This document shows positions 55,207 to 61,130 of a stretch of 64,000 nucleotides of DNA, piece after piece. The DNA lies in NCBI GenBank assembly GCA_012646185.1, contig GCA_012646185.1_4706.1, one strand, 5' to 3'. A program made the position numbers and the translations under genes. Under the pieces are notes generated by a model. That model was not told where the DNA came from and made no database searches. It worked only from the letters and a program-made list of their open reading frames with translations. Numbering within the stretch: position 1 is the first letter of the stretch; each line of letters starts with the position of its first letter. The stretch comes from a phage.

Positions 55207-55561
55207 CATGTCTAACACGCCCCTGAACGACTTTCTTAAGACAAACCCCGATGACCTCATCCACGATCTTGATTTCAGGAACGTTGTTGAGATGCATCTG
55301 GAATATTTCAAAAATGCCGGACTGGTCTCTACGATAGACATACCACCCGAACGCGCCTACGAATTCGATGGTAACTTTTATGGATTGTGTCGTGTTCTGC
55401 TCGGCGAGGGTAGCGAACCAATGCACTGGATAACCATGAGACTCAATGGTTATCGCGACCCTACGGAATACACCGCCGATGTTCTAACCATGAAGATTGT
55501 CGATACAAGCGCAATCAACACATTAAAACAACAGTACCGCACAATCCACTACAGCGCTTAA
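55207..55561 (+). CDS. hypothetical protein (~118 aa), lone plus-strand gene inside the minus block
   Basis: ATG at 55207 preceded by GAGGT; followed by hairpin 55567-55595; could be spurious. Confidence 0.35.
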
Positions 55562-55566
55562 GATAA

Positions 55567-55606
55567 CCCTCCCACAGCGTAAAGCGTAGGGAGGGCATTT
55601 ATGCCG
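55567..55606. terminator. GC hairpin CCCTCCC/GGGAGGG (15-nt loop) followed on plus strand by CATTTATGCCG
   Basis: Arms 55567-55573 and 55589-55595 between convergent ORFs 55207-55561 (+) and 55627-56907 (-). Confidence 0.45.
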
Positions 55607-55626: not shown

Positions 55627-56907
55627 TCAGAAACGATTCACAGTACGTCCTGTCCACGCGCTCAGGATGTTGTTACGTTCCATCTCAGCCCGACGACGTA
55701 AACCGTTTGGCGACTGCGGTGCTTGCGGCATCCCCCATCCAGCCGGTTGCATACCCATGCCCGGCCAAGCAGCGTTATTGAACATCGTACCGTTACGTTC
55801 CGCAACACGGTTCATCAGCGCATCAAACGTGCTATTACCTGCCGGTTGGTTACCGCCGCTTTCCCACTGATTAGGTTGGACAGGTGCGGTTTTACCCAAC
55901 AGGTTATCGATCACACTGCCTGTTGAAGCAGGACGCGGTTGCATACCTTCATGTGCAGCTGCTGATGGATTTGGCTTAACCGTCGGCTGTGGACGACTGT
56001 TCAGCGTTACACCCATGTTGTATTTCGCTGGCGGAATCTGACCACGATGTTGATTGATCGGTTCAAAATCCTCAACCCAGGTAACATCACAGTAGCCGTT
56101 CTCTTTACCGTCGTACTTATCACCAAACAGTTTGATGAGATTGTTCAGCGGTTCCATCAGCTTAGCGAAGCTGTGGATAAGACAATCGAAATACGGAGCA
56201 TGAGGATCGCTTGACCCAGCGTTGTACGTTTCACTTACCTCACCCGCGTGCGGGATAACGTACTCAACCAGGTTTCTCAGCATGTTAAGATCTTTCTTGG
56301 AAATCTCAACACCACACCAGTACGTTTTCTTATCTTTCGTGCTGATGTGTTCTTCTTCCATGAACGGGAAAGTAACGACCGCAACGCGGGTCATCTTCTT
56401 ACCCATGTAGGTTGCGCCGGTACGACGAAGATAAATTTTGGACAGCGTATACGGTGTGTCGCGTTTCAGCCAAACGGTGACCAGTTTGCCCAGGGTCGTT
56501 AGTGTTTTATCGCTGGCGTCCGCAAGGATGTTGAAGAACTCTTTTTGCTTCGGTCCGAAACGTTTTGCTTCTTTAGGATTGATTGCGGTTTCAACCATCC
56601 AAATCAGCATGGAGCATAGCGTGGCGTTAAAACGAACAACCATCGCACGACGCAGGAACTGAAGTACTTCCGATTCGCCGTTCATCACGTCTTCACTTAG
56701 CGGATGGAACAGCACACGTTCAGCCAGCTGATTTCCGGTACGAACTTCAGAAACCGGCATCAGCAACGGCATGCTTTCCACGGTAGCGGCAACTGCAACA
56801 ACTTTACCATCCCCATCCGTAAAACGATATTCTAATTCGTGGGCGTCATTCTCAAAATAGTTAACGCTCTGTAGTGCTTTGCGATAAGCTTCGATAAGCT
56901 TCGACAT
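55627..56907 (-). CDS. hypothetical protein (426 aa) with low-complexity P/Q/G/N/M-rich C-terminal region
   Basis: C-terminal ~120 aa rich in Pro, Gln, Gly, Asn, Met (GMQPAGWGMPQAPQSPNG). Confidence 0.55.
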   Translation of the reverse strand: MSKLIEAYRKALQSVNYFENDAHELEYRFTDGDGKVVAVAATVESMPLLMPVSEVRTGNQLAERVLFHPLSEDVMNGESEVLQFLRRAMVVRFNATLCSMLIWMVETAINPKEAKRFGPKQKEFFNILADASDKTLTTLGKLVTVWLKRDTPYTLSKIYLRRTGATYMGKKMTRVAVVTFPFMEEEHISTKDKKTYWCGVEISKKDLNMLRNLVEYVIPHAGEVSETYNAGSSDPHAPYFDCLIHSFAKLMEPLNNLIKLFGDKYDGKENGYCDVTWVEDFEPINQHRGQIPPAKYNMGVTLNSRPQPTVKPNPSAAAHEGMQPRPASTGSVIDNLLGKTAPVQPNQWESGGNQPAGNSTFDALMNRVAERNGTMFNNAAWPGMGMQPAGWGMPQAPQSPNGLRRRAEMERNNILSAWTGRTVNRF

Positions 56908-56962
56908 ATTGTATTTCCTTTTCTTTACGTCAACGGTCCCCCTACAACAGGGGACCTATGGA

Positions 56963-58549
56963 TTAGAAGTTGCCTTTGGTAGTTACCGCATCCACCAGGT
57001 TAAACAAATCAACGCTCAGCTTATACACCTCCTGCTGGCTACGGTTGAGCAGCGGGCTGTATGCAGATGGGTTGATGTTCGGCATGGTGTACGGAATCGG
57101 TGCAGAACCGTCAACGCTGATCTTGAACTGGCTGTCCAGGAACAGGTTAATCGCGCCGCTCACCATAACCGCATTCGGGTTGTTGCCCAACATGGAGGGT
57201 AGGATATTGGTAATCATGTCAGAACGCATTTGTTCAGCAGCACGGTTACAATCGTATCCTTTAATGAACGGTACTGCGTCGGTAACCGCAACCGCCCACT
57301 GACCAGGCATGATACCGAGTTCTGGGTGACCATGGTTGTCAGCAATGAAACGGAACGATTCCAACATGCGGTATGTCATCGCAGCAGGCATCATTGCAGC
57401 AAGCGATGAGCAATACAGCGTTGGATAATCGATCACGTCCCAGCTCTGACTATCGGTCGGCATCCAACCAAACTCGGTGGTTGCTGATGTACCACGACGA
57501 GCTTCCACATACGGGAATAACGTTAAGACATCACGGATATGTTCACCGAACATCCGTTTCATGTCCGCCCAACTCAGGCTGCCGCTGAACGCGAATCCTT
57601 CATCACGCATAATCGCACCGAATACCGGATGCGCAACCAACGGTTCTTCGCGAACAGCTTGAGCGGCTTCTACGTAAATATCCTCGTTCTCTGCGCTACC
57701 TGGATGAGACCCGCTTTCGTACGTCTGACGAATAGCCCCAACATTATCGAAGGCTTTTCTTAGATAAATGGTTGGGATGTTCGTATCGGCACTAGCGGGT
57801 TTGATTTTCTCTGTTGCGAAACACATTGCTGCTTCCACACCACGGAAAACCGGTTCCGGTTGCGGTGGATAGGATGTACGATGAACCACATCAGCGTAGG
57901 CGGGATCGAACTGTTGCATTACGTTCTGCATGGCTGGGTCCATGAACTGGTTATCAAAACCACCATTGCCCACCCAACGCGCTGTTGATGCATAGGTCAG
58001 CGTATCCTGAACACGAGTACTGAACTGAACATCACGATTAACCGGGTCGTATGCGCCGGTCAACAGGTTCGTTGCGTCCATCGGGGTTGCACGAACGATT
58101 TGCTTACCGAACATATCCGTTGTGGTTGTTTCGGTTACCTGGATTACGTTCGTGAAGAAGAACACCAGTTCGTTCGGCAGATCGATAGCGCGCGTTGTAA
58201 ACGCATCGAGGCTTACAGAATGGTCGGTGTATCCAGAAATGTAATGGACACGCTTGGTTCCTGGTGCGAGGGTCAAGGATTCTTCTACCGCCATCATGAA
58301 ATGGAAACGACGTGTGCCCCAACCATTCGCAATCTCCGAAACCCCCTCAGGTTCTGCAGACTGCTGCAACAAACCGGTTGCAAGCTTATTGATTGCTGAT
58401 GGTGTTGTTGCCGTACCGAACTTCGTCGTGTTAATGAAGTCTTCGATGCTACGCATGCTATCTGCGTGGAATCGTAGTGGGCGACGTTGTACGTTGTTGT
58501 ACGGTGCGGTTTCAACCATCAGTATTTCACGAACATTCATCGGGATCAT
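56963..58549 (-). CDS. hypothetical protein (528 aa)
   Basis: Long ORF, co-oriented, 1-nt gap to upstream gene. Confidence 0.6.
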   Translation of the reverse strand: MIPMNVREILMVETAPYNNVQRRPLRFHADSMRSIEDFINTTKFGTATTPSAINKLATGLLQQSAEPEGVSEIANGWGTRRFHFMMAVEESLTLAPGTKRVHYISGYTDHSVSLDAFTTRAIDLPNELVFFFTNVIQVTETTTTDMFGKQIVRATPMDATNLLTGAYDPVNRDVQFSTRVQDTLTYASTARWVGNGGFDNQFMDPAMQNVMQQFDPAYADVVHRTSYPPQPEPVFRGVEAAMCFATEKIKPASADTNIPTIYLRKAFDNVGAIRQTYESGSHPGSAENEDIYVEAAQAVREEPLVAHPVFGAIMRDEGFAFSGSLSWADMKRMFGEHIRDVLTLFPYVEARRGTSATTEFGWMPTDSQSWDVIDYPTLYCSSLAAMMPAAMTYRMLESFRFIADNHGHPELGIMPGQWAVAVTDAVPFIKGYDCNRAAEQMRSDMITNILPSMLGNNPNAVMVSGAINLFLDSQFKISVDGSAPIPYTMPNINPSAYSPLLNRSQQEVYKLSVDLFNLVDAVTTKGNF

Positions 58550-58550
58550 T

Positions 58551-60137
58551 TTATTTTTTTCCTCTTAAATTTACTACGTGTTCATTTAATCGAACAACTA
58601 ATTGCACAAGCTGCTGACGGATATCTGCTGGACAAAGCATCAATCCTTTACGGTCAGCTGGGACTTTCTCAAGGATTTCCGGGCCTGCTGCTGAAACATC
58701 CCAGTCCCATTCACAAAACGCATCGGCCACCATGTTAATACCGACAACCGGTAAAGTTGTACGTTCATCTTCATACATGGCGTGTGGATACAATTTATTG
58801 ACAGTAATGATCTCCTGTGGTTTTAATTGGTGGATAATCTGATAAACATCGTCGCGTTTGACCTGGATACCTACGGTCAGCGCTGCCAGTTGAGGAAAAC
58901 CCCAATGGTCTAATAAGCAAGCTGCAATCGCTAACGCTTTTGCTTGATGCACGGCTTCAATCGGTGCCAGACTTCTCGCCGGAAGATGGCTATCAAGCAA
59001 CCATTGTGCCAGTGCTCGGCATCCACGGTTGATTGGTTTTAACTCAACGGTGTCATCATGTTTAGCGTACGTGTATCCGTCGTAACGTTTTGCGATACGC
59101 GCATACATGTCTTCAACTTTACCGTAAGGTGCCGTTTCGTCGACGTCGTGCAACACACGTTCCATCTGGGTAAGATACGCGATATCAAGAATGAGTACAC
59201 GCGGTGAACGTTTATCTTTCACCATCAACGCATCAATCACGCCTTGACTGTCTTCATCTTGCGCGTTCCCTCGTGGGGTTTTCTCACGAATCGGTCCGCT
59301 GAAACGTCGTTCCGTACAAAGGTTATTCACATAGCTAAAGATCAGTGTTACCAGATGCGTACAACTCACCAACACCCCATCTTTAACGACAGGCTGTACG
59401 GCTTGGTCCAAGTCGCGTACGGCGAGACGGCGGACGATGGCTTGTGAACGCAACCAGCCGGGCACTTTCTCCGTCGACATGTAATCCACGGTCATCGACA
59501 GCGTGATCTTTTTATCACCCGTCTGTGCGCGGATATAGTCTTCCAGTCGGTCGTAAGCGGCGATATCGTGAATGCGTGTTTTATACATCAACGACATAGC
59601 CACTTCTTCTTTACGAACCGTTCCGTACGTTTTCCCTGCGTCAATCAGAAACTCTGCCCAAATCGGCACCATCAGACGGACGTAGATCGCTAACGCCGTT
59701 AACTCAACGTAATCATTTCGTAAATAGGTTTTCTCAGGAATATCATCCTCACCTAATGTTGTTTTCATGTCCGGCGGTAATTTTACCCAACCCGGGGTAT
59801 TACACAACGCCAGAATCTCTTCGTACACAACCGGTTTGTAAATTTCACCAACAGCGCGACTCAACTCCTCCATTTGTTGTTGTGGAGCAATGTAGTTATC
59901 CATCGCTTCACGTGCTTTAACGAACCCTTCGAAGATGTCGTCAATTCGACGTGGGTTCTTTTGTTCTATCCAGGCGAGATACTTGTTAATCTCCCGCATC
60001 TGATTGCTAGCCATATCCCCATCAATCTTGATGTAACCCTGACCTGAAAATTCCACAGTACGTCCATCACGGTGTTTGATGAGATAGTGATCCAGCTTTT
60101 CTTTTCCTTGCGTCGTAATGACGGGCACTATGTGCAT
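58551..60137 (-). CDS. hypothetical protein (~528 aa)
   Basis: Start moved to ATG 60137 (MHIVPV) with AAGAGG SD. Confidence 0.6.
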   Translation of the reverse strand: MHIVPVITTQGKEKLDHYLIKHRDGRTVEFSGQGYIKIDGDMASNQMREINKYLAWIEQKNPRRIDDIFEGFVKAREAMDNYIAPQQQMEELSRAVGEIYKPVVYEEILALCNTPGWVKLPPDMKTTLGEDDIPEKTYLRNDYVELTALAIYVRLMVPIWAEFLIDAGKTYGTVRKEEVAMSLMYKTRIHDIAAYDRLEDYIRAQTGDKKITLSMTVDYMSTEKVPGWLRSQAIVRRLAVRDLDQAVQPVVKDGVLVSCTHLVTLIFSYVNNLCTERRFSGPIREKTPRGNAQDEDSQGVIDALMVKDKRSPRVLILDIAYLTQMERVLHDVDETAPYGKVEDMYARIAKRYDGYTYAKHDDTVELKPINRGCRALAQWLLDSHLPARSLAPIEAVHQAKALAIAACLLDHWGFPQLAALTVGIQVKRDDVYQIIHQLKPQEIITVNKLYPHAMYEDERTTLPVVGINMVADAFCEWDWDVSAAGPEILEKVPADRKGLMLCPADIRQQLVQLVVRLNEHVVNLRGKK

Positions 60138-60194
60138 AACAACCTCTTTTCGCGGTTCCCTGTTAAAACGTCTTCTGTGACGTCTACCACAAAG

Positions 60195-60210
60195 GTAATA
60201 TAAGCGTGAA
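60195..60210 (-). promoter_or_regulatory. variant of the conserved promoter-like element (gtaatataagcgtgaa), about 58 nt upstream of ATG at 60137
   Basis: Matches the 20-mer at 14177 and 42189 at 14 of 16 positions; minus-sense reads TTCACGCTTATATTAC. Confidence 0.3.
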
Positions 60211-60341
60211 TAATTTTGGATTCCGGCTGAGTTATCGCTCAGCATGCAAGGCATCCCGCCGAAGCGAGACACCTTGCACTAACGGAAAATATTCGCGTTA
60301 CCTTCTGAATCGAAGACTCAGAATGCGATGCTAAAGCGTTA

Positions 60342-61130
60342 TTAGAACGCTAAGCCATCAAAGGCTATGGACGGATCGTCGTCGTCATTTGCGCTTGGCG
60401 CATCCCAACGGGTATCAGGGGCCGCTGAAGCCGAACTTGATGCGTTAGAGTTACCGTTGTACTGGCCATTACCAGCATTACGGTTACCGCCGCCGTTGTT
60501 ATTGTTACGGTTATAGCTATTGTTGCCATTACTTACGCTACGGCTTTCACCGTCGAAATTGGTTGCGAGGATGCTCGGCAACACTGCGCGATGAATACGT
60601 ACAAATTCCAACGCACAAAGCGGAGAAACAACCCCGATCTGTAAAGGTTGCCCAGACTCATCAACCAGAGCGTGGAAACGCGGCGGCTTGAATACGAATT
60701 GGATGTTCGGTTTTTGGTACGCTGTTACAGCGATATATACCGAACCATCATCGTTCTTACCAACCCATGTTGTACTTTCGGTAATCTGTTTCTTCTTACC
60801 TGGGTTATTGCGATCGTCGATAACCTTTTCGTTCTTCATCGCAAAACGTTGGCCTGGTTTACCCTTAGCAACCTGCTCGAGGATCGCAAGCAGGTTATAG
60901 AACGCGTATGAACTCATGCGCGCCCAAATGCTTTCAGCGCGACCCTGCTGGTCTTTACGACCGGTGTAAACCGTGATACGCGGTTGATTCTTAGCAACGC
61001 TAATTTTCAATGAGGGGATTGAATTACCGCCCTCAACCTTTTCGTCCGCCCACAGTTTCCAGTTGTTGTCGTCATACGCTGTAGGAATAATGTTTCCTTG
61101 TGGTTTACTGCCCGAATTCCAATTGCTCAT
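60342..61130 (-). CDS. putative single-stranded DNA-binding protein (SSB-like architecture)
   Basis: Globular N-terminal part, then Asn/Gly-rich linker (NRNNNNGGGNRNAGNGQYNGNSN) and acidic C-terminal tip DDDDPSIAFDGLAF, reminiscent of SSB tails ending DDDIPF. Confidence 0.45.
   Translation of the reverse strand: MSNWNSGSKPQGNIIPTAYDDNNWKLWADEKVEGGNSIPSLKISVAKNQPRITVYTGRKDQQGRAESIWARMSSYAFYNLLAILEQVAKGKPGQRFAMKNEKVIDDRNNPGKKKQITESTTWVGKNDDGSVYIAVTAYQKPNIQFVFKPPRFHALVDESGQPLQIGVVSPLCALEFVRIHRAVLPSILATNFDGESRSVSNGNNSYNRNNNNGGGNRNAGNGQYNGNSNASSSASAAPDTRWDAPSANDDDDPSIAFDGLAF

Follow-up and report, generated by a model that had tools for sequence, protein, structure and literature searches.

A predicted disordered C-terminal tail with two recurrent short elements in gp173 of Escherichia phage Goslar

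How messenger RNA leaves the phage nucleus, and how selected proteins enter it, is a central question for the nucleus-forming jumbo phages, and few conserved proteins associated with the nuclear shell are known (ChmB, ChmC/Imp6, PicA/Imp1 and the family considered here). The locus studied here lies in a 64,000-nucleotide stretch of phage DNA (GenBank assembly GCA_012646185.1, contig GCA_012646185.1_4706.1; hereafter the window), which we identified as Escherichia phage vB_EcoM_Goslar, a nucleus-forming jumbo phage (coordinates in the record MK327938 equal those of the window plus 100,589). At 55,627–56,907 on the minus strand, as the preliminary description of the DNA had placed it, we confirmed an open reading frame (ORF) with an ATG start that encodes the 426-residue protein gp173 (Goslar_00173) and its stop codon. 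The protein ends in a low-complexity tail, and the question is what such a tail might do at the shell of a phage nucleus. The reading that we favour, with a probability of about 0.5, is that gp173 is a shell-associated protein whose flexible tail serves multivalent docking and condensate-type association.

Composition, predicted disorder and identity of gp173

The compositional bias of the tail is real and well beyond chance. Proline, glutamine, glycine, asparagine and methionine (P/Q/G/N/M) together account for 44.7% of residues 295–426 and for 20.7% of residues 1–294 (Fisher p = 7.7e-7), and the best 100-residue stretch of gp173, at 51%, ranks first among the 76 ORFs of at least 120 amino acids in the window (median 24%), where the disordered tail of ChmC comes third at 38%. 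Taken singly, P, Q and N are enriched at p = 0.02–0.04 and G at p = 0.06, while the enrichment of Met in the gp173 tail is not significant (6.1% vs 4.1%, p = 0.46). The P/Q/G/N/M-rich C-terminus first noticed in the letters thus holds as a bias; the statement that these residues dominate it does not, since Ala, at 10.6%, equals any one of them and Arg makes up 23% of the last 26 residues. The GMQPAGWGMPQ-type repeats mentioned in the same place were overstated: the sole repeated units are the tetrapeptides GMQP and QPAG, each present twice, no 5-mer recurs within the tail, and Tandem Repeats Finder reported no repeat in its DNA, which together rule out true repeats.

Structure prediction with AlphaFold2 divided the protein into a folded N-terminal domain (residues 1–296; 56,020–56,907, minus strand) of alpha/beta type and a C-terminal tail (residues 297–426; 55,630–56,019, minus strand) that is of low complexity, predicted to be disordered, 45% P/Q/G/N/M and strongly basic (isoelectric point 11.4). 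With an alignment of 5 sequences the predicted local distance difference test score (pLDDT) was below 50 for all of residues 297–426. With 74 sequences the N-terminal domain reached a pLDDT of ~95 and 78 tail residues (322–331, 337–359, 373–399 and 411–426) stayed below 50; a helix at residues 361–371 gained confidence (block 361–370, mean pLDDT 72) and a second, at 400–418, did so in part (block mean 57). No ordered fold is predicted for the tail, because most of it stays below a pLDDT of 50, with the short helix 361–371 alone gaining confidence. Together with the variable length and the scant positional conservation of the tail among 154 relatives, these models support the disorder proposed in the preliminary description, and the C-terminal ~130 residues of gp173 are very probably intrinsically disordered. 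The N-terminal domain has no recognisable known fold; Foldseek returned Whirly structures for gp173 only at E values of 4–8 and a probability of 0.03.

The protein itself has been deposited without a function. Goslar_00173 (QBO63966.1) is 99.5% identical to the product of the window ORF and carries the GenBank label "hypothetical protein". The two residues that differ between the window and the Goslar reference, A328S and P395Q, both lie in the tail, as do most of the differences in a metagenomic variant that is 99% identical to gp173 (P0001), and this fits a relaxed positional constraint on the tail sequence. Searches of Pfam, NCBIfam and PDB sequences gave no match to gp173. In the PHROGs search it matched phrog_3520 (E 6e-64, residues 1–390), and BLASTP aligned its N-terminal domain with phiKZ gp70 (E 6e-25, 29% identity). 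A hidden Markov model (HMM) of the N-terminal domain recovered each of the 17 homologs from cultured phages with E values no higher than 1e-51, and the orthologs PhiPA3 gp64, phiKZ gp70 and 201phi2-1 gp126 all belong to PHROG 3520; the Goslar protein YP_009820858.1 has moreover been given as the PhiPA3 gp64 homolog (Enustun et al. 2023, PMC10643120). We are nearly certain, therefore, that gp173 is the Goslar ortholog of PhiPA3 gp64 and phiKZ gp70. It belongs to an already catalogued family of phage-nucleus shell-associated proteins that is core to the Chimalliviridae. Our literature searches returned nothing specific on gp173, PHIKZ070 or 201phi2-1 gp126, and no mention of the gp64/gp70 family was found in the reviews of 2025–2026 that we consulted.

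Anatomy of the tail across the family

When 1.84 billion representative proteins were searched with a profile, 1868 family members came up at E<=1e-3 (1291 at E<=1e-30), from which we assembled a set of 154 tails consisting of the 150 best matches and the reference sequences, leaving out a near-identical Goslar duplicate. Every one of the 154 representatives has a tail, of 111–298 residues (median 159). In all, each of the 223 relatives examined carries such a low-complexity tail. Compared with the N-terminal domain, the 154 tails contain more Q (x5.2), P (x3.6), W, G and A, and less K, D, E, L and I. Their segments show a mean top-residue frequency of 0.11–0.35 (0.50 in the N-terminal domain) and gap fractions of 0.09–0.56 (0.04 in the N-terminal domain); the biased composition is kept across the relatives, and the sequence and the length are not. 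The N-terminal domain, for its part, holds family-invariant residues (Y8, P51, H68, P69, E72, F180 and P292) and the motif FHPLSE..(R)GES.

Two short elements recur within these variable tails. The first, at some 40% of the tail's length, has the consensus T-x-G-G-[LV]-[DS]-[FW]-x-[SDE]-[VLI]-[MLV]-x-x-N-P; a strict regular expression found it in 85 of 154 tails (5.1 in shuffled sequences), and a motif HMM scored at least 5 bits in 110 of them and in none of the shuffled ones. The second is the very end of the chain, where the last residue is I, L, V, F, W, Y or M in 134 of 154 tails (87%, against a tail background of 23%), usually preceded by G, R or S; the Goslar tail ends in ...NRF. Among 52 IMG/VR homologs, 42 carry polar P/Q/G/N/M tails and 9 carry mixed-charge tails rich in R, D and E, and both elements are retained in either flavour (tips of the R/D/E type read ...GSRF, ...TMRF and ...RRRW). 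Because both motifs persist in each flavour, selection appears, as judged from these alignments, to keep a disordered arm of a set physicochemical type with two anchor points rather than an exact sequence. We did not find an earlier description of this conserved anatomy, or of the two flavours, in the literature searched. As a separate observation, one of the two features under our tblastn match in Pseudomonas phage Churi (OM718002.1), apparently the gp70 homolog, is labelled "Med15 subunit of mediator complex protein", almost certainly a spurious Q-rich low-complexity match propagated into GenBank.

In Goslar the tail can be followed from its first linker to its tip, all on the minus strand. 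The first linker contains SVIDNLLGK (residues 331–339; 55,891–55,917), an amphipathic, helix-prone segment that DSSP assigns as helix at 333–336 in both models and that the alignment pairs with "SPLARLMNS" in a close relative (P0002). The Goslar copy of the central motif, AGNSTFDALMNRVAER (residues 356–371; 55,795–55,842; 7.8 bits with the motif HMM), coincides with the only confident helix of the tail, and the segment that holds the motif has the lowest gap fraction of all tail segments. It is followed by the most biased P/Q/G/M/W stretch, NGTMFNNAAWPGMGMQPAGWGMPQAPQSPNG (residues 372–402; 55,702–55,794), which holds the segment quoted as a repeat in the preliminary description; its 30-residue windows are 60–67% P/Q/G/N/M and its pLDDT is below 50 in both models. 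The next element, LRRRAEMERNNILSAWTG (residues 403–420; 55,648–55,701), would form a basic amphipathic helix (DSSP helix from 400/401 to 418, block pLDDT 57) and is common only to the closest relatives (P0002/P0003, IRRRQADARAGVNQAWTG). The chain closes with the tip RTVNRF-COOH (residues 421–426; 55,630–55,647), in which a hydrophobic last residue follows residues of the G/R/S type, as it does throughout the family. The whole Goslar tail has 7 aromatic residues in 130 and neither an FG nor a GF dipeptide.

Candidate functions of the tail

Most of what is known about the family comes from the orthologs. PhiPA3 gp64 is expressed early, its fusion to green fluorescent protein localises to the nuclear shell, it appears in the proximity-labelling lists of ChmA and RecA, and it is brought down with ChmB (all PMC10643120); the same study found it absent from earlier virion mass spectrometry and could not detect homology to known proteins. 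For gp173 itself, shell association is taken by analogy from the PhiPA3 ortholog only. In phiKZ, gp70 has been treated as a nuclear protein (bioRxiv 10.1101/2024.03.27.586873), and transposon-insertion sequencing (TnSeq) found 1 insertion site in the trimmed PHIKZ070 gene and 5 over its 1302 bp, with an insertion index of 0.001–0.004 vs 0.022 for the dispensable neighbour 070.1 (PMC12676376 supplements). Since the tail makes up 40% of phiKZ gp70 and insertions are nearly absent, the tail does not appear to be freely dispensable.

These observations, set beside the anatomy of the tail, suggest a protein of two parts, in which an alpha/beta domain of ~300 residues would carry a flexible, multivalent disordered arm of ~130 residues. 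The central amphipathic motif (G-Phi-D-[F/W]-x-x-Phi-Phi, residues 356–371) and the hydrophobic tip would dock on partners in the shell, for which ChmA and ChmB are candidates, and the low-complexity segments between these anchors may associate with themselves or with other chains through weak, composition-driven contacts of the condensate type. The protein, and with it whatever ligand its folded domain binds, would thereby be concentrated at the nuclear periphery, beside the import machinery of PicA and the mRNA-handling machinery of ChmC. We hold the multivalent docking or condensate role of the tail only tentatively, at somewhat less than even chances; the neighbouring ChmC offers an analogy that makes condensate formation plausible. 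A disordered arm kept across the family, with two short motifs and two interchangeable flavours, offers concrete handles for experiments; should the tail prove dispensable, it would count as just another low-complexity extension of a hypothetical protein.

The candidate partner that can be compared most directly is chimallin, ChmA. The Goslar protein (Goslar_00189, identical to PDB 7SQT) has a low-complexity tail of its own, whose tip is hydrophobic (...NNMGGAFNLF), and C-terminal segments of ChmA dock on adjacent protomers (PMC9365700). (Papers and the record do not number the Goslar genes consistently: in the ChmC paper ChmA of Goslar is "gp246", and Goslar_00246 in MK327938 is a putative RNase HI.) Across 17 phages, the ChmA tail and the gp70-family tail encoded by one phage resemble each other in composition (centred cosine 0.43, against 0 when pairs are mismatched, with a permutation p of ~5e-5). 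Most of this signal is owed to four phages whose gp70-family tails are of the R/D/E type (Xoo-sp14, and BUCT660, Centimanus and PCH45, which form a clade). They represent two independent lineages in neighbour-joining trees, and Arg makes up 13–27% of their ChmA tails, in RG/RGG-like form, vs 0–11% elsewhere. As a further observation, the ChmA cores of these four phages are also more acidic (D+E 14.5–17.7% vs 9–14% elsewhere). Conceivably, the tails of the two proteins together make up a layer on the shell, a matched "brush" or a thin condensate, that is selective for the traffic of mRNA, of PicA cargo or of both; such a layer would be a phage analogue of low-complexity phases of the FG-nucleoporin or speckle type, in which the tail flavours of both proteins would co-evolve and the hydrophobic tip might fit a pocket of the kind that the ChmA C-terminal segment CTS2 uses. 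We regard this extension as improbable.

Several observations weigh against a shell-docking, condensate-type tail in gp173, and they begin with this ChmA comparison. When the four R/D/E phages are set aside the cosine falls to 0.14–0.18, not above the folded-domain controls (0.20–0.21), so that the match is inseparable from a lineage-wide composition bias; a general co-variation of the two tails, being driven by four phages of two lineages, is kept as a lead only. The central-motif HMM had no match in the 17 ChmA proteins, which rules out, at the level of sequence profiles, that the motif mimics the ChmA C-terminus (as a comparison of "GGGAFNHLM" in a relative with "NNMGGAFNLF" in ChmA might suggest). 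Most relatives have a more extreme tail than Goslar, whose Q content is 6% vs a family median of 13%. The reports on localisation differ, placing PhiPA3 gp64 at the shell and phiKZ gp70 in the nucleus, and phiKZ gp70 did not co-purify with Imp1 (bioRxiv 10.1101/2024.03.27.586873) and is therefore not a stable PicA partner. Finally, two antisense oligomers against PHIKZ070 received no plaque phenotype score, where PicA was scored "+++" (PMC12571901 supplement), and the TnSeq and antisense data on phiKZ gp70 are in conflict.

The alternative that survives best, though we consider it unlikely, is that gp173 is a hub resembling the bacterial single-stranded DNA-binding protein (SSB), in which the low-complexity sequence would be an entropic spacer. 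Partner proteins would be recruited to the ligand of the folded domain by the terminal peptide, alone or together with the central motif, as happens in bacterial SSB through its P/Q/G-rich linker and its tip, so that no condensate is needed. The architecture is the same, with a folded domain, a P/Q/G-rich linker and a conserved C-terminal residue, and the only weak PDB matches of the family profile are low-complexity tails, one of them from Deinococcus SSB at a non-significant E of 1.8. The linker of Escherichia coli SSB contains GGWGQPQQPQGG, resembling "AGWGMPQAPQ" of Goslar.

Distinctly less likely is a transcription cofactor that would act with non-virion RNA polymerase (nvRNAP) in the nucleus, its P/Q-rich tail clustering polymerase or nascent RNA in the manner of a eukaryotic activation or hub domain. 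The gene is set among those of the nvRNAP subunits gp175, gp171 and gp165, phiKZ gp70 is listed as nuclear, and the automatic Med15 label of the Churi homolog reflects the same Q-rich composition; that label, however, is a low-complexity artefact without homology, and PhiPA3 gp64 is found at the shell and not throughout the nucleoplasm. The purified and structurally solved phiKZ nvRNAP, moreover, is reported to consist of gp55, gp68, gp71–73, gp74 and gp123 and not to include gp70, which counts against a cofactor. The subunits gp68, gp71–73 and gp74 are named in bioRxiv 10.1101/2024.03.27.586873, in partial support of that composition.

Very unlikely, in our estimate, is a permeability element in which many gp173 tails would line or cap openings in the lattice of chimallin, making up a selective phase like that of FG-nucleoporins for PicA cargo or ChmC-bound mRNA. 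The shell-localised ortholog and the neighbouring genes of PicA and ChmC agree with it, as do the low charge and polar character of most tails with their interspersed aromatics (7% overall) and the FG/LFG-like repeats of some relatives (Phabio); the Goslar tail, however, has no FG dipeptide and few aromatics, the tails of ~17% of the homologs are of the highly charged R/D/E type, a stable complex with Imp1 is not formed, and no pore containing a gp173-family protein has been seen. The scaffold or internal virion protein suggested in the preliminary description, whose tail would help to package or organise the capsid contents, has the general precedent of disordered scaffold and ejection proteins and is hardly tenable, for the ortholog is expressed early, localises to the shell and is missing from virion proteomes, gp173 is not named among the virion proteins in the text of the preprint on Goslar virion structure and proteomics, and the gene lies in the replication/transcription block of the Goslar annotation, outside the structural block.

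Gene neighbourhood and comparison with known systems

The genes around gp173 follow the order gp176, gp175, gp174, gp173, gp172 (on the opposite strand) and gp171, which phiKZ mirrors with gp67, gp68, gp69, gp70, 070.01 and gp71; the block of ChmC, a gp68-like gene, PicA, the gp173 homolog, a small antisense gene and the nvRNAP beta gene is thus kept in phiKZ, and we found it also in a metagenomic contig (whose gp173 homolog is 29% identical) and in 15 further phages. Immediately upstream of gp173 lies gp174 (56,963–58,549, minus strand), the essential nuclear protein-import factor PicA/Imp1, so named for Goslar in PMC11087766 and matching phiKZ gp69 by BLASTP (E 2e-14). Between it and gp176, gp175 (58,551–60,137, minus strand) takes the position of phiKZ gp68, an nvRNAP subunit (bioRxiv 10.1101/2024.03.27.586873); its mechanical ORF extends over 58,551–60,272 (573 codons' worth of amino acids from an upstream GTG start), and GenBank places the start 45 codons later, giving 528 amino acids at 58,551–60,137. 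Three genes upstream of gp173, gp176 (60,342–61,130, minus strand) is ChmC/Imp6, an RNA-binding Whirly protein whose N/G-rich disordered tail drives condensates (PMC11077065).

Smaller features of the locus may be recorded alongside. The extreme 5' end of the gp173 coding sequence holds a perfect 10-bp tandem duplication, AAGCTTATCG on the coding strand (56,882–56,904, 2.3 copies), which contains two HindIII sites and encodes KLIEAYR. Convergent to gp173, Goslar_00172 (55,208–55,561, plus strand; 117 amino acids as annotated, phrog_3455) keeps its exact position and orientation in phiKZ (070.01), Phabio, 201phi2-1, OBP, Proteus phage 10, in Erwinia, Klebsiella, Salmonella and Ralstonia phages and in a metagenomic contig; the trimmed TnSeq table lists zero transposon insertions for phiKZ 070.01. 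GC-rich hairpins flank gp173 on both sides, GGTCCCC...GGGGACC (56,935–56,956) in the 55-nt gap after gp174 and CCCTCCC...GGGAGGG (55,567–55,595) in the interval from the stop of gp173 to the convergent stop of gp172; no T-run follows either of them, and a terminator scan therefore did not report them.

Of the known systems, the orthologs phiKZ gp70, PhiPA3 gp64 and 201phi2-1 gp126 share with gp173 the two-part architecture, the long low-complexity tail and the position between PicA and the antisense gene with nvRNAP beta. The tail sequences cannot be aligned, however, and phiKZ gp70 differs in composition (M 12% and Q 13%, vs 6% each in Goslar) and in lacking the basic helix 403–420.

ChmC (Goslar gp176, PhiPA3 gp61) resembles gp173 in its association with the phage nucleus and in joining a folded N-terminal domain to a disordered C-terminal tail, which in ChmC is required for condensate formation (PMC11077065). 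The two differ in that ChmC is a Whirly RNA binder with an N/G-rich tail and an acidic DDDxPxx tip, whereas gp173 has a P/Q/G/N/M tail and a hydrophobic tip. Paralogy of gp173 and ChmC, raised by low-probability matches to Whirly, RAD52 and RecT, was rejected at an hhalign probability of 0.6% (with profiles built from 75 sequences for gp173 and from 10 for ChmC). The alignment of ten ChmC proteins gives a G/N-rich consensus tail with "DDDxPxx" at its end, like the acidic tip DDDIPF of bacterial SSB; because of this resemblance ChmC looks, from its sequence, architecturally SSB-like, with a single-stranded nucleic acid-binding domain, a linker and an acidic tip. Bacterial SSB itself shares with gp173 the folded domain, the P/Q/G-rich linker of low charge and the short C-terminal docking peptide with a hydrophobic end, but gp173 has neither an OB fold nor an acidic C-terminal tip, and the two are not homologous (the match at E 1.8 is one of low complexity).

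The eukaryotic low-complexity domains of FG-nucleoporins, of the Q-rich FUS/Med15 type and of RD/RE speckle proteins offer a compositional analogy only: the Goslar tail is much shorter (130 amino acids) and has neither repeats nor the multiple FG repeats of FG-nucleoporins; LFG/GFG motifs do occur in some relatives, such as that of Phabio. What these domains have in common with the gp173 family is that composition is kept over sequence in polar, low-charge chains with sparse aromatics; and the alternation between polar and R/D/E tails recalls the two classic condensate-prone types, in proteins placed at a nucleus-like barrier.

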